A stretch of 29,978 bases of DNA from Gammaproteobacteria bacterium (GTDB lineage Bacteria; Pseudomonadota; Gammaproteobacteria; Pseudomonadales; Azotimanducaceae), in the NCBI GenBank assembly GCA_028821035.1, contig JAPPHP010000410.1, positions 1 to 29,978 of the forward strand, read 5' to 3'. Positions 1,480 through 7,779 of this stretch are shown piece by piece. The notes under the pieces are model-generated. The model worked only from the letters and a program-made list of their open reading frames with translations. It did not search any database and was not told where the DNA came from. How positions within the stretch are numbered: position 1 is the first letter of the stretch; each line of letters begins with the position of its first letter. The position numbers and the translations under genes are program-made.

Positions 1480-1878
1480 GGGGTTCCGTGTCCTTTCGTC
1501 AGAATAGCCGTTTCCATGCCCCGGAGCATCCGCGCACCGGCATGCCCGCGGGGGCCATAGCGGTGGATTCTCCTGGCGGCGGGGCGCGGAGTCTGTAGGA
1601 CGTCTCGGCGAACTGTTGTGGGACATTCGCTCGACCGGCGGCGGCAACGCGTCCGGCGGACCGTAGGCAGCGGATCCCGGAAACCGCCCCCAATGTTGGG
1701 GACGCGGATCGGGCAGGTCGTTCCTATAGTGCGGAAACGTGCGCGAACCCGGCCGTTTTCCGGGCGCCGCACGTTGGCTGGCATCTGTCGGATGAGGGAG
1801 CGTCCATGCGTGGGGAACCGGAAACGGGGGCAGCGTTCGGCGAGGACCCGGCCGCGTGCCGACGAGGCCAGCCCTTTC

Positions 1879-2058
1879 AACCGGTTGCGCGACGTGTCGG
1901 CGCTCGGCGACCTGCCGCAGCTCATGTGACTGCGTGTCTCCGGGAGTCCCATCGTGGACTTCTCCCCGCTCGGAAGGCTGGCGGCCCTGCCCGGGCGACC
2001 AGGCGTGCCTGCCCGGGTCATCGAGACGACGGACGGCAAGGCGGCCGGCGGGCGGTAG
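1879..2058 (+). pseudogene. Degenerate remnant of the LRR C-terminus of the modular surface-protein family
   Basis: Translates [35 protein letters not shown]...[12 protein letters not shown] versus intact [29 protein letters not shown]...[12 protein letters not shown]. Trp TGG is TGA at 1927-1929, and no homologous upstream sequence is present. Confidence 0.85.
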
Positions 2059-2099: not shown

Positions 2100-5000
2100 A
2101 TGGGCATGCGGGGACCGCTCGCGGCACTGGTGCTCTTGACGGCGGCAATCCACGCAAGCGAGGCATCGCCCCAATCGGTCGATGGCGACGACGCCCCGCC
2201 CAACATCGTCGTCTTCCTCTCCGACGACATGGGTTGGGGACAGCCCGGATTCAATGGCGGCGACGAGGTGGAAACTCCCAACATCGACCGCATCGCCGAG
2301 GAAGGAACCAAGCTCATCCAGTTCTACGTGGCACCAGTATGCACGGCGACGCGGGGGGCGTTGCTGACCGGACGTTACTCCTGGAAGAACGGCACGGGTG
2401 TCCGTTTCAATGCCAGGACGAGCATGGGCATGCGCGTCGACGAGCGCACCATGGCCGAAGCCCTGCGCGACGCCGGCTACGCGACGTGGCTGGTCGGCAA
2501 GTGGCACCTCGGGCAATGGCAGCGGAAACACCTGCCGCTGCAGCGCGGCTTCGACCACCACTACGGCCTGTACGGGGCGGAGATCGACTCGTTCTCGCAT
2601 CATCGGGGCCGGGACCGAGACCTGGCCCTGGACTGGCATCGCAACGGACGCCCGGTGGTCGAGGCGGGCTACTCGACCCTCTTGCTGGCGGAGGAGGCAG
2701 TCCAGCTCATAGACCGTCACGGCCCGAGCGATCCCTTCTTCCTGTTTCTGGCATTCAACGCCGTCCACAACCCGAACGACGCCCCACAGGAGTACATCGA
2801 CCGCTACAGCCACCTCGACAACCCCAGGCAGCGCGCCCAGCTCGCCGTCATGGATGTCGCCATCGGCCAGGTCATGGACGCACTGGAAGCCAAGGGCGTG
2901 CTCGACGACACGCTGGTGATGTTCCTGAACGACAACGGCGGCACGAGCACGGCGGGCTGGAACGCGCCCTACCGCGGCAAGAAGTCGGAGTACCACGAGG
3001 GAGGCATCCGGGTTCCCGCCGTCCTGCGCTGGCCCGGCAGGATCGCGCCGGGGTCGGAGAGCGCCGCGTTGCTGCACGCCGTGGACCTGTTTCCTACCTT
3101 CGCCGGGCTCGCCGGAGCGGACGCCGGCGCCGGCCTGGCGCTTGACGGCGCCGATGCGTGGGCGGCGATCGCCGATGGCGCGGCAAGCCCGCGCGACGAG
3201 GTGGTGCATTCGCTCGACGTGATCCGCAAAGGCGACTGGAAGTTCATCGAGGAGGGGATCGACTACTACGGCTGGACCACGGACGCGCCCGAGCTGTACG
3301 ACATCGCGGCGGATCCTTACGAGCAGACCAACCTGGCTTCGAGCGAGACCGCCAAGGTGGCGGAACTGCGGGCGCGCCTGGCCGATCACGCACAATCCGC
3401 CCGAGACGCGGAGACGTCTGAGAACATTCCGGACTACCCGCCGGTCGTCTATGGGGAGGAGGAGAACACGGCGTTCGCCGACCAGGTGGAGACGGCCGTG
3501 CGCGAGCTCCGGGCTGGCAATCCGGCGCCGTCGCTGCTTCGCCTTGAAGTCACGGGCGCGAGCGTCAAGCTGGTCCACGACGAGACGCTCGACCCCGATT
3601 CAACGCCGCCGACGAGCGCTTTCGCGGTGATGTCGATGCCGGAGTACCGATCCATTCAAGTCGCGAGCGTGGCGGTGAGCGGCAGCGACGTGACGCTGAC
3701 GCTGGCCGAGACGCCAACCGGCCAGACGTTGGGTCTCACCTACGAGGTTCCGGACACCGGCGCGATCCGCGACGGGGACGAACTCGAGGCGGGCGGAAGG
3801 ACCTGGATTGCGGCAACGCTGCTATCGACGGACGCGTCGCTTTCGGCACTGGCTTTGACGGACGGCGATGGCGATGCCGTCTCGCTCAACGAGACCTTCG
3901 CGCCGCTGACGACGTCGTACACGGCGAGCGTTGGGTACGACGTGACTGGACTGACGCTGTCCCCGACCACCGGCGACAGCAACGCCACGGTCACCTACCT
4001 GGCCGCCGACGGGACCACGCTCGCAGATGACGACGCCGACACCACGGCCCTGGACACGACGCTGGCCGTGGGAGCGAACGCGATCCAGGTGAAGGTGACG
4101 GCGGAGGACGGGGTCACTACGCAGACGTACAGCGTAACCGTGCAGCGTGCCGCCGCCTGGGTCTGGTCCACGACCATGACCGTGGGTGGGGACTCTTCCG
4201 GCATGGGATTCTCGAGCCTGCCCAACCCCGACGTGGGCCGGCTTGCGGACGACACGTTCGAGCACGCCGGCCTCACGCGGCGCGTGCAGATCGTCGCTGC
4301 CTCTTCGGCCGGCGTGACGTTTCGGACCCGCAACGGCGGAGACACGTTCGGCGGCCTGGTACTCGAGTGGGCGGGCGAGGTCCTGCCGCTCGACGACGCC
4401 ACCCGCAACTCCAACACCTTCACATGGAACCAAGCGTGGCTGGACACCAACGCGTCCTCCCTCAGCGCGGCCAGCTACGAGACGACGTTGCCGACCGGCG
4501 GATCGGCGACGGTGTGCCTGCGGGTGAGGTCCGCGGCCTGCCCGCAAACGCCGACGTTCGAGGACGGTGCGAGTGCGTCGCGCGGGGTACCGGAAAACGC
4601 CCCGGCGGGCACGGCAGTCGGCGCGGCCGTTGCTGCGACGGGTGCCGGCGGCGAAAGCCTCGCGTACTCGCTTGCGGGCGCGAACGCGGCGGAGTTTGCG
4701 ATCAACGCGTCGACCGGTCAGTTGACGACCTCGGCGGTGCTGGATTACGAGGCGGGGTCCAGCCGGGCGGTCACGGTGAGCGCGGCCAATGCCGACGGCG
4801 GCGCCACGTCGATCCCGGTGACGGTCGTCGTGACGAATGTCGACGAGCCGCCGGATGCTCCGCCAGCGCCAACGGTCTCGGGCGCCTCGAGTACGTCTTT
4901 GTCGGTGTCCTGGAGCGCGCCGGCGAACGCCGGGCGCCCGGCGGTGACCGACTACGACGTTCGCTACGGCACCGGGGGCGGCGCGTTCGTGGACTGGGCG

Positions 5001-7079
5001 CACCAGGGTGCGACCACCTCGGCGACCATCACGGGGCTGTCGGCGGACACGGTTTACCAGGTGCAGGTGCTGGCGAGGAACGCGGAAGGCGCGAGCGGGT
5101 GGTCGGCCACGGGCGAGGGGCGCACGAAGGCGGCGGACGCGATGCTTACCGCTCGGTTCGAGAACGTTCCCGCTATGCATGACGGGTCGAGCGCGTTCAC
5201 GCTGGAGCTTGCGTTCTCCGAGGCGGTGTTCGACGGCACCGAGTCGTTCGACAAGAACCAGGCGATCGGGGACGCCCTCCAGGTGACCGGCGGCACGGTC
5301 AAGGGCAGACGCCGGACCGACCCCGGCGCCTTCGACCGGTGGAGACTGAGGATCGGGCCTTCCGGCCGCGGCGACGTGACGGTCAGGCTCCCGGCGACGA
5401 CCGGCGGCTGCGACGTGGTGGGTGCGATCTGCACGCCGGACGGCCTTCCGTTGTCGGCCCCGGCTGCGGCGACGATCCAGGGTCCACCGGCGGAGGCGCC
5501 AGACGCGCCGTCGGCGCCGGCGCTGACGGCCGGAACGACGTGGCTCGAAGCGTCATGGACGGCGCCGTCCGACAACGGCGCGGCGATCACGGACTACGAC
5601 ATCGGGTACCGCACGACGGGCGGGAACTGGACGGACGCCTCACACGCCGGCACGGCGACCACGAAGCGCATCGAGGGCCTTACGGTCGACACGGACTACG
5701 AGGTGCGGGTGCGGGCGACGAACGCGGAGGGCAGCGGCGACTGGTCTCCGTTTGCATCCGGGCGTACGGACGCGGCGGACAGTGCCAGCGAGGGCGACGT
5801 GCGCCTGGTCAACGGCACTACGGCCCAGGAAGGCCGCGTCGAGATCTACCACAACAGTGAGTGGGGCACGGTGTGCGACGACCGGTTCGCCTCGGACGAG
5901 GCGGCGGTGGTGTGCCGGCAGCTCGGCTACACGGGCGGCGAGGCGCACCGGCAGGCGGCGTTCGGCGAGGGGACGGGAACGATCTGGCTGGACGACGTGC
6001 AGTGCACCGGTAGCGAGTCGCGCCTGGCGGACTGTTCCTCCGTGGGCTGGGGCGTACACAATTGCCGGCACTCGGAGGACGTCGGGGTGTCGTGCGGGGC
6101 GGCGGCGGGCATATCGCTCGCGAGCGCAACCGTGTCGGGGTCGGCGCTGACGCTGCGCTACGACCGGACCCTGGACGGCGGCTCGGTGCCGTCGCCGGGC
6201 GACTTCGTGGTGGCGAAGGGCTCGTCGGCCCCTGCTGTGGCGACTCTCGTCGAGTCGGTCGCCGTGGTCGACGGCGCTGCGGTGCTGACGCTGGCGCGAC
6301 CCGTCGAGCCGTCGGAGAACGTGTCCGTCAGCTACCTGCCCGCGCCAATGCACCCGTTGCAGGACGCCTCGTACAACCCGGCGCCCGCGCTGACCGGCCA
6401 TCCGGTCCGGCACGCACCCGCGACGGCGGCTTCCCACGAGGTCATCAAAGGGTTGCTGGCGGAGCCGCCGCCCGCCGGCTTCGAGAGCGGAGAGAAAGTC
6501 GAGGTACTAAGCCTGTCGTCGCGCGCCCTGGCCGGCCTGTCCCCGCTGGCGGCGCTGGTGGACCTGGAGGTCCTCGACCTGCGCGACAACGCCGTGGACG
6601 ACCTCTCGCCTCTCGCCAGTCTCCCGCACCTGCGCGTACTGGACCTGTCCGGCAACGCGGTCTCAGACCTGTCGCCACTGGCGAGCCTGTCGGAACTGCG
6701 CCGCCTCGACCTGTCGGACAACCGCGTGGCCGACCTCCGGCCGCTGTCGGAACTGCGCCGCCTCGAGGTGCTGCTGCTCCACGGCAATCGGGTCTCGGAC
6801 CTGGTGCCGCTATGGGGTCTGCCGGACCTCGCCCACCTCGGCCTGCGAGACAACCGCATCGCGGACGCGGCGCTGCTGCGGGACGTGCGGTCGCTGCAGC
6901 GGCTGGATCTCGCCGGCAACCGGTTGCGCGACGTCTCGGCGCTCGGCGACCTGCCGCAGCTCGTGTGGCTGCGTGTCTCCGGGAATCCTGTCGCGGACTT
7001 CTCGGCCCCCGGACGGCGGACGGCCGCGCGCTGGCTGATGCTCGAGACGACGGACGGCGAGGGGTCCCGCGAACCGTAG
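2100..7079 (+). CDS. Secreted multidomain arylsulfatase/adhesin (1659 aa): signal peptide, sulfatase, SwmB-like, cadherin-like beta-sandwich, unknown domain, cadherin, FN3, unknown domain, FN3, SRCR, SwmB-like, LRR
   Basis: Start [22 protein letters not shown] (Sec-like; ATG 2100 or 2106). Sulfatase motifs [48 protein letters not shown] (about 2196-3400). DASLSALAL...SYTASV (about 3830-4150). PTFEDG..R.VPEN...G..V (cadherin, about 4550-4850). Two P.AP..P...L.VSW.AP..G..TDYDV.Y FN3 units (about 4850-5130, 5490-5770). SRCR 5790-6095, LRRs about 6498-7005. Confidence 0.92.
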
Positions 7080-7091
7080 GTCGCAGGGCTC

Positions 7092-7448
7092 CTACACGAG
7101 CCGGTCCAGGCCTGCGAGGACGGCCAGAAAACCCGCGATCACGCCCAGGAAAGCGAGGGCCAACGTCACCCCGACGCCCAGTACGTTGAACTTGGTGTGC
7201 AGCGACTTGATCTCGCCCCTGAACTCGGCGAACTGCTTGTCGACTTGCGCGAACTGCTTGTCGACCTGCGCGAACCGTTCGTCGACGTGGGCAAGAATGC
7301 GTTCGAATCCGAGATCGAGGTCCTTACGAACGGCGACGTGGTCGCCAAGCTGTGTCCCGAGCATGCTGGCGACGCCCTCGGCCTGTTCGCGTTCCATCCC
7401 TGACAGCGCATCCGCCACCTGCAGCGTGTCCATCACCGGCTGTGCCAT
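7092..7448 (-). CDS. DUF1640/CCDC90-like small coiled-coil membrane-anchored protein, copy 2 (118 aa)
   Basis: Paralog of 1126-1479. Lacks QR in the head, has an extra heptad (FAQVDKQ twice) and lacks one 4-residue unit near ELRGELTGE. Confidence 0.8.
   Translation of the reverse strand: MAQPVMDTLQVADALSGMEREQAEGVASMLGTQLGDHVAVRKDLDLGFERILAHVDERFAQVDKQFAQVDKQFAEFRGEIKSLHTKFNVLGVGVTLALAFLGVIAGFLAVLAGLDRLV
7228..7290. repeat. 21-bp tandem repeat (about 3 units) encoding coiled-coil heptads
   Basis: gcgaactgcttgtcgacttgc / gcgaactgcttgtcgacctgc / gcgaaccgttcgtcgacgtgg. Copy 1 has one fewer unit. Confidence 0.85.
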
Positions 7449-7779
7449 GGGGTTCCGAGTCCTTTCGTCAGAATAGCCGTTTCCATGCCCCGGAGCATCC
7501 GCGCACCGGCATGCCCGCGGGGGCCACAGCGGTGGATTCTCCTGGCGGCGGGGCGCGGAGTCTGCAGGACGCTTCGCCCAACTACTGTGGGATGTTCGCT
7601 CGACCGAGGGCGATCCTGGGCGGGCACGGTCAAAGACGAGAAGTGCCTGGCGGCAGCGACGCGGCCGGCGGACATCGCCGCGGCGTGACAGAGTGGCTCA
7701 ACCCGCAACGATCGACGAGCCGTTCCTGCACCACGACCGGGGACGCAACCGAGAAGACTTGCAGAAGGGTGAAACCGTC

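Follow-up and report, generated by a model that had tools for sequence, protein, structure and literature searches.

The gene at positions 2100–7079 on the forward strand of a gammaproteobacterial contig (JAPPHP010000410.1; the window analyzed here is this whole contig, 29,978 bp in length) codes for a single polypeptide in which an S1 formylglycine-dependent sulfatase is followed by a long stalk and a tail comprising an SRCR domain of the metazoan type, a SwmB-type repeat and leucine-rich repeats (LRRs). We consider it reasonably probable that this protein is a Sec-exported sulfatase of a sponge symbiont, which is tethered through its tail to the matrix or cells of the host and desulfates glycans locally. 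Such an enzyme is made plausible by the conjunction of a sulfatase that looks intact and exported, SRCR and LRR domains of canonical form, and an origin in sponge metagenomes. The source genome (2.97 Mb in 486 contigs, about 70% G+C) is 64.7% complete and 0.28% contaminated; the public runs containing the sequence are labelled sponge metagenome, and related records carry the labels Gammaproteobacteria, Pseudomonadales and Ca. Azotimanducaceae. Related loci are found in metagenome-assembled genome (MAG) bins of the SB06xx, IRC4, RHO1 and COS4 series, with the label mostly Gammaproteobacteria, and we take these series to be those of the published coral-reef sponge MAG studies. The host species of the coral-reef sponge MAG series are covered by Robbins et al. 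2021 (PMC8163846).

The protein maps onto the DNA as follows, with residues numbered as in P0001, i.e., counted from the ATG at 1806:

2100..2165, forward strand: start codon and Sec-type signal peptide, from the translation; orthologues begin at the same hydrophobic segment
2199..3401, forward strand: catalytic domain of the S1 formylglycine-dependent sulfatase (PF00884, residues 132–438, E 4e-51)
3525..3755, forward strand: SwmB-type repeat 1 (PF13753, residues 574–650, E 1e-7)
3879..4148, forward strand: cadherin-like beta-sandwich (PF12733, residues 692–781, E 1e-14)
4161..4550, forward strand: unnamed domain 1 (residues 786–915), without a Pfam family
4587..4832, forward strand: Cadherin domain (PF00028, residues 928–1009, 34 bits, above the cut-off)
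4857..5111, forward strand: FN3 domain 1 (PF00041, residues 1018–1102)
5142..5489, forward strand: unnamed domain 2 (residues 1113–1228), without a Pfam family
5520..5756, forward strand: FN3 domain 2 (PF00041, residues 1239–1317, E 1e-13)
5808..6095, forward strand: group A (six-Cys) SRCR domain of the metazoan type, full length (PF00530, residues 1335–1430, E 9e-30)
6117..6335, forward strand: SwmB-type repeat 2 (PF13753, residues 1438–1510)
6471..7079, forward strand: about 7.5 LRRs of 22 residues (internalin/SDS22 type; LRR_4/LRR_8, residues about 1556–1744, LRR_4 E 2e-29), a short C-terminal extension and the stop

An earlier note, made from the sequence alone, had read the protein as a sulfatase followed by SwmB-like, cadherin-like, FN3, SRCR and C-terminal LRR domains, and this order is recovered by Pfam, coordinates included. 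Its count of 11 domains for the stalk was roughly right, given that the Pfam-based map has ten modules behind the catalytic domain. The sulfatase itself extends beyond the catalytic domain into an SGSH_C subdomain reaching about residues 526–530, and in the 120 homologues mapped (see below) SwmB-type repeat 1 always stands directly after the sulfatase module, so that the two form a constant pair. The frame is free of stops from 1599 to the stop at 7077–7079, with its first ATG at 1806; the database entry starts at 2106, an alternative to the start at 2100.

The head reads as an exported S1 sulfatase that is predicted to be catalytically intact. With 174.6 bits (cut-off 25), it covers the PF00884 profile from position 1 to 301. 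Among solved structures, human ARSB is its best relative (1fsu, E 7e-67), followed by the bacterial exo/endo-4-O-carrageenan sulfatases 6prm, 6b0j and 9hh3 (S1_19) and 9fo1 (S1_16), with E values up to 6e-51; as nearest neighbors, ARSB (S1_2) scores 229 bits, the S1_19 enzymes 208–219 bits and the S1_16 enzyme 177 bits. All ten catalytic and metal residues of ARSB have aligned counterparts, namely D140/D141 and D376/N377 (aligned with D53/D54 and D300/N301 of ARSB), C179 and R183 in C-T-A-T-R, K232/H234 in GKWH, H321 and K392. The first sulfatase signature, C179-T-A-T-R183...LLTG, aligns with the formylglycine (FGly) residue and Arg95 of ARSB, and its C-T-A-T-R core is invariant in 23 orthologues. 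Alanine at the proline position of the FGly motif is the commonest natural variant, being found in 369 of 4,058 sulfatases (PMC5066984). The second signature, G-[YV]-x-[ST]-x2-[IVAS]-G-K-x(0,1)-[FYWMK]-[HL], can likewise be read in the sequence. Further, the genome offers candidates for the maturation enzyme: there are five PF03781 matches of the formylglycine-generating enzyme (FGE) type at four loci, the best of which (260 bits) adjoins two sulfatase genes on contig C156. Thus, profile, both signatures and a maturation enzyme in the genome all place the head among the S1 sulfatases, and its description in the earlier note as an intact-looking formylglycine-dependent sulfatase stands, the catalytic motifs being complete as opposed to those of an inactive relic.

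The organism as a whole is sulfatase-rich, as 30 sulfatase matches are found in a genome that is about 65% complete. A long open frame is seen in just one other case, on contig C33 (L025 2543–6724, reverse strand), where 1,393 residues have the sulfatase at the C-terminal end and 876 N-terminal residues without a Pfam match. This frame may be a real second fusion or one that is over-extended in GC-rich DNA.

As for the substrate, a 4-O-sulfate on glycans of the Gal/GalNAc type is the most likely choice as judged by homology, because the closest solved enzymes (ARSB and the S1_19 and S1_16 carrageenan sulfatases) all act on Gal/GalNAc-4-sulfate. The same neighbors admit another source for the glycan: the substrate might be an algal or dissolved sulfated polysaccharide (carrageenan- or fucoidan-like) filtered by the sponge, with the stalk acting as a spacer and a carbohydrate-capture rod. 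Several of the closest solved enzymes are indeed bacterial carrageenan 4-O-sulfatases, and sediments match sponges in their enrichment of sulfatases (PMC5735121). However, the family sharing the tail (described below) occurs almost only in sponge metagenomes and bins and is absent from 300 sampled genomes of the class, and the tail domains are binders of proteins and polyanions of the animal type rather than carbohydrate-binding modules. Hence, we regard a substrate from outside the host as rather unlikely.

A fusion of this kind on a contig that begins inside a repeated tail, with stalk segments that are multi-copy in the metagenome and a fossil gene directly upstream, might be suspected to be an assembly chimera or a decaying pseudogene. 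Against this, the frame from 2100 to 7079 runs over 1,660 codons without a stop, and its G+C content at third codon positions (0.86) is the same as in the other genes of the contig. The same junctions recur elsewhere. Our homologue search scored 8,000 candidates, and the modules of this protein were mapped onto the best 120 homologues. Among these, five clusters (its own and four others) have the identical order of sulfatase, SwmB, cadherin-like, unnamed domain 1, Cadherin, FN3, unnamed domain 2, FN3, SRCR, SwmB and LRRs, with 78–82% identity over 98–100% of the length; fourteen further clusters lack the second FN3 alone and otherwise have the same layout. Accordingly, at least 19 clusters (counted at 90% identity clustering) share the sulfatase-to-LRR layout, and the 18 besides its own are 77–83% identical to this protein. 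The orthologues with this layout come from other assemblies, on contigs of up to 1.9 Mb, and more distant versions lie on a 4.1-Mb contig. Weak support also comes from public short contigs of two sponge runs, which match with zero mismatches and tile much of the gene; among the Logan contigs listed, which are short unitigs, none spans it whole. With identical junctions in orthologues sampled elsewhere, a chimera of assembly is very unlikely, and the joining error that the earlier note named as a possible refutation is countered by the independent assemblies; chimera and pseudogene taken together strike us as exceedingly improbable.

The tail begins with an SRCR domain that matches positions 1–99 of the 100 of PF00530 with 103 bits. 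It has six cysteines, without the extra pair of the aligned CD163 domains, and thus belongs to group A. Against animal domains, including that of MARCO, it scores 95–122 bits (e.g., neurotrypsin 122, SCARA5 118 and CD163 domain 7 108 bits). The motifs VCDD, WLDDV and HNCRHSED (CDD, LDD and N-x4-E) stand at the places expected for the cation site, as aligned to CD163 and not directly to DMBT1, the reference residues of which are D1019/D1020/E1086 and D1058/D1059/N1081. The SRCR cation site of DMBT1/SALSA has heparin, hydroxyapatite and a streptococcal LRR protein among its ligands (PMC7043408). The terminal LRRs are closest among solved structures to the LRRs of Chlorobium Roco (5il7) and to InlA. 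An identity as an internalin was set aside, as the NCBIfam internalin_A models (NF033189 etc.) reach 87 bits against a cut-off of 1600, and that through the LRR part alone; neither an internalin cap or inter-repeat region nor an LPXTG or GW anchor was detected in the protein. Similarly set aside was an identity as a giant SwmB-like surface protein: there are just two single SWM_repeat domains, and TIGR02059, with 33 bits, falls short of its cut-off of 40. Variation is seen at the extreme C-terminus: most relatives have RWLVLDAG, about 20 residues, and PLLLIETTDGK.SGGP, and these approximately 20 residues are missing here (7020–7079), where a small in-frame deletion appears to have occurred at the end of the tail.

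Domains of such animal-like character raise the possibility that the protein is mainly a eukaryote-like decoy, with SRCR and LRRs disturbing host recognition or phagocytosis and the sulfatase being an accessory, for instance one that strips sulfated epitopes. Eukaryote-like repeat proteins of sponge symbionts are reported to let Escherichia coli evade phagocytosis, as cited in PMC8163846, and SRCR receptors are expanded in sponges according to PMC4772301. Yet, the strict conservation of the catalytic motif argues that the enzyme activity itself is selected, and nothing indicates that the protein is delivered into host cells. A decoy as the main role therefore seems distinctly improbable.

The tail is not peculiar to this protein. 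Among the 8,000 scored candidates, 516 are relatives at E<=0.001, nearly all of them from sponge metagenomes, and about 100 of the best 120 homologues end in the SRCR-SwmB-LRR triad, mostly preceded by unnamed domain 2 and FN3 units. In front of these stand very different heads: one or two sulfatase modules, an FGE-sulfatase module with CARDB, triple arrays of cadherin-like domains, Calx-beta, or F5/8 type C domains. We define these here as the SRCR-SwmB-LRR tailed protein family, to which the present protein belongs by virtue of the triad behind unnamed domain 2/FN3 units and of its variable head. In public databases, the members are unannotated MAG proteins with no described family. Given a shared tail with differing heads, the fusion to a sulfatase is one of the combinations made by a family that shuffles its heads, rather than a one-off invention; with at least 19 clusters of the same layout and more than 500 proteins sharing the stalk, the architecture is not rare, and its being common in the databases, which the earlier note had named as a possible refutation, largely holds.

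The tail occurs in seven of 21 other species of the same genus and was found neither in 19 genomes from other genera within the family and order nor in the 300 genomes of the class mentioned above. An SRCR domain is found in only one of 400 other sampled genomes of the phylum. That genome (G151, of the same class) has four SRCR matches on its contig C4, each in an open frame of only 114 residues; these resemble exons or contaminating sequence more than they do a bacterial gene. Members at 59–69% identity (L008, L009, L015 and P0093) lie in bins labelled Rhodospirillaceae, Caldilineaceae (Chloroflexota), Acidimicrobiales and Acidobacteria, and these foreign labels reflect either lateral transfer among co-resident sponge symbionts or mis-binning. 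In runs X1 and X8, the summed contig depth is 235–550 over 5081–5588 (unnamed domain 2) and 5843–6096 (SRCR), against about 8–9 in X1 for the pieces that match this strain exactly; thus, both modules are highly multi-copy across the community. One related locus (L001, 1–15055) has three family genes in the same direction, with FGE-sulfatase/CARDB, cadherin-like and sulfatase heads. There the sulfatase-headed orthologue lies downstream of the cadherin-like-headed paralogue with an 11-nt overlap, and upstream are the FGE-sulfatase/CARDB-headed paralogue and a gene for a PAS-LuxR regulator (3883–5055, reverse strand). The FGE-like head on an exported stalk may serve as a lectin-like module or as a maturation enzyme outside the cell.

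Such head swapping gives force to a different understanding of the tail, namely, that it is a docking or retention cassette, which fixes interchangeable heads to the surface of the bacterium itself or to a shared scaffold. The triad is found under very different N-terminal parts in about 100 of the 120 proteins, the tails of the two paralogues in the window are 71–86% identical, and a variable N-terminus with a constant C-terminus is the pattern of sorting and docking modules; animal SRCR domains, moreover, bind bacterial surfaces. On the other hand, no known anchor or sorting motif could be recognized, the very end of the C-terminus varies and has lost a part in this protein, the duplicated gene for a small membrane protein beside the tail is absent from related loci, and no scaffold protein has been identified. 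Docking on the producing cell is thus possible, if doubtful.

The preferred account, of an enzyme tethered to the host, can be spelled out as follows. The protein would be exported via Sec, and a rod of Ig-like spacers would carry the enzyme at its N-terminal end and the SRCR-SwmB-LRR binding cassette at the other. The tail might then hold the enzyme on proteins of the host cell surface or on a sponge matrix that is polyanionic or sulfated; the SRCR domain would tether by way of its cation site and the LRRs by binding proteins. Sulfate esters, most likely the 4-O-sulfate of Gal/GalNAc-type glycans, would be stripped locally by the head, and this desulfation could open sulfated glycans of the host (or trapped dietary ones) to degradation or remodel the glycans of the host surface. 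Transcription would proceed from a conserved family promoter at about 1690–1740, brought adjacent by the deletion of an upstream gene. Sulfatases and proteins with LRR, cadherin and FN3 domains are both enriched in sponge symbionts (PMC5735121, PMC8163846), secretin genes are present in the genome, and the proposed mechanism fits the idea, for which PMC5735121 cites Slaby et al., that symbiont sulfatases open host sulfated polysaccharides.

Several points weigh against this account. The substrate rests on roughly 35% identity to characterized enzymes. As unrelated heads share the tail, it could serve for display on the bacterium and not for binding the host. A start at ATG 1806, which is in frame with the sulfatase gene, would place the signal peptide internally, 98 residues in, and could impair export. 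Finally, neither a membrane anchor nor a known sorting signal was recognized by eye in the sequence. The tethered, host-desulfating enzyme proposed in the earlier note therefore survives in part: the sulfatase looks intact and exported, the SRCR and LRR domains are canonical and the origin is in a sponge, but the tail cannot be taken as an adaptation of this enzyme, because the cassette is common to hundreds of proteins with other heads.

A broader proposal, which we put forward tentatively as a possibility, is that the tail is a mobile display cassette of symbionts, with its own promoter/operator and an SRCR domain possibly derived from a host, which mounts interchangeable heads at one docking site common to all, located either in the sponge matrix or on the surface of the symbiont. 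If true, it would amount to an extracellular, cellulosome-like tool kit for host sulfated glycans, with sulfatase, FGE/lectin-like, cadherin-like, Calx-beta and discoidin heads, and it would spread by recombination and by lateral transfer between co-resident lineages.

The two segments for which the earlier note could name no family (residues 786–915 and 1113–1228) indeed have none, either in the local copy of Pfam or in a newer precomputed list, and the structure prediction and fold search that it had recommended separate them: the second is Ig-like and the first is without a convincing relative. Unnamed domain 2 is found in 3,897 cluster representatives at E<=0.001 (50% identity clusters), with up to 25 tandem copies in giant proteins, and has the pattern LTA.FE.VP..HDG...F...L.FSE ... 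C...GA.CT.DG., in which the His, the Pro and both Cys are invariant. Its AlphaFold2 model has a predicted local distance difference test score (pLDDT) of 87 and resembles bacterial Ig-like domains in the AlphaFold DB (TM 0.6–0.68), for which matches to antibody V domains in the PDB (E about 0.01, TM about 0.4) were set aside. On the strength of the model, it is an ordinary bacterial Ig-like spacer that Pfam does not cover and for which a new family could be proposed. Unnamed domain 1 is present in 51 protein clusters, nearly all within this family; its model, of moderate quality (pLDDT 72), is a beta-sandwich with a helical insert and two conserved cysteines. A Foldseek search against the PDB gave nothing significant (best E 0.3), and the ESM Atlas, searched by features and by shape, returned unnamed clusters only. 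The AlphaFold DB offers a single probable relative under the name "SbsA Ig-like" (E 3e-4) and, at E 0.02, a Siah/TRAF-like entry, while VIA-align picked out TRAF/MATH domains at Z 4.1–4.7. This is below the level that would indicate more than a common beta-sandwich, and the TRAF/MATH name was set aside as a lead only. The model thus makes unnamed domain 1 an orphan beta-sandwich that is almost confined to this family. A further family, PF28033, is listed for some relatives; to judge by where it occurs, it seems to be part of N-terminal heads elsewhere in the family, outside both unnamed domains.

The DNA around the gene bears on its expression and recent history, and the relevant features are:

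1688..1808, forward strand: conserved 5' element of the family, with the palindrome CCCCAATGTTGGGG, a TATAGT box, a GGGAG ribosome-binding site and the ATG at 1806
1806..2058, forward strand: remnant of an upstream family gene, of which an internal deletion has left the conserved start and leader fused to a fossil of the final LRR and C-terminus, with a TGA stop
1126–1479 and 7092–7448, reverse strand: two small coiled-coil genes with a C-terminal hydrophobic segment, 87% identical, with a weak CCDC90/DUF1640-like match

The 120-nt element is conserved at 77–83% nucleotide identity upstream of other family genes in at least six related loci, with invariant blocks in the alignment, and its TATAGT box lies about 75 nt before the start. 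In its strict form, the pattern of the element has a single match in this genome and six in related loci, and a diverged copy is seen on contig C372. An Rfam search of 1100–2300 returned nothing, as did a scan of 1480–2110 for consensus sigma-70 promoters and terminators. The element probably drives transcription of the sulfatase gene, with the promoter at about 1690–1740, and is a candidate for the promoter/operator of the whole family. Behind it, a conserved leader of about 22 codons (1806–1870), with a motif common to eight other family proteins, runs up against a fossil last LRR and C-terminus with its TGA at 1878–2058; a tblastn search with the LRR tail matches 1834–2040 in another frame, and 1878–1986 is 87% identical in DNA to 6917–7025. 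A further fossil C-terminus and stop (GGNASGGP*) lies at about 1640–1668. Evidently, an upstream family gene has collapsed by deletion, bringing its promoter next to the sulfatase gene, and the frame that opens at 1806 stays open into the latter.

The same tail is found in the gene that is cut by the contig start (3–1112), and the two copies form part of a direct repeat of about 1.65 kb (5–1637 and 5974–7606, 87.7% DNA identity), which holds half of the SRCR domain, the SwmB repeat, the LRRs, the stop and a convergent gene of 118 residues. As the contig starts inside the first copy of the repeat, the array may be longer. The small DUF1640/CCDC90-like genes are convergent with each tail, and more copies are present on contig C445. 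A role for this membrane protein as a general partner or anchor of the tails was rejected: duplicated though it is here, it is absent from 21 related loci.

Neither the enzyme nor its mechanism is of a new kind, and proteins with this architecture are already numerous, if unannotated, among public MAG data. The enzyme class, the domain classes, the habitat and the proposed role are already known, whereas the architecture, the shared animal-type tail and the swapping of heads are not found in the searchable literature, where we came upon no paper on a bacterial SRCR-SwmB-LRR tail or on an enzyme fused to one. Two domain families without a Pfam entry and one conserved regulatory element are brought to light.

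Set beside known systems, the head shares with ARSB and the S1_19 and S1_16 sulfatases the fold, the FGly motif, the metal-binding Asp/Asn and the Lys/His pairs; these enzymes are of about 450–500 residues without a stalk, whereas the present protein has some 1,150 further residues for binding and spacing, as well as Ala in place of Pro in the FGly motif. With SALSA/DMBT1 it has in common a full-length, six-Cys SRCR domain with the acidic motifs of a putative cation site, although here a single such domain, a candidate ligand binder, is set within a bacterial protein. Like the Listeria internalins (InlA, InlB and InlH), with InlA among its best matches, it has 22-residue LRRs, but these are C-terminal, as opposed to the N-terminal LRRs of the internalins. 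Cellulosomal enzymes combine different heads with a shared C-terminal dockerin, and an analogy might be struck with the present family, in which many heads likewise precede one constant C-terminal module; between dockerin and tail, however, there is no relation in sequence or fold, and no cohesin-like partner is known here. A further parallel lies with the eukaryote-like proteins and sulfatases reported from sponge symbionts (PMC8163846, PMC5735121), which share with this protein the habitat, the domain classes, the proposed roles and the signs of lateral spread. Those surveys give domain counts, among which its architecture does not appear. Thus, the sulfatase and the eukaryote-like adhesion traits of sponge symbionts, so far counted separately, are here united in one polypeptide, which offers a concrete molecule for how uncultured symbionts might attach to and feed on the sulfated extracellular matrix of their hosts.

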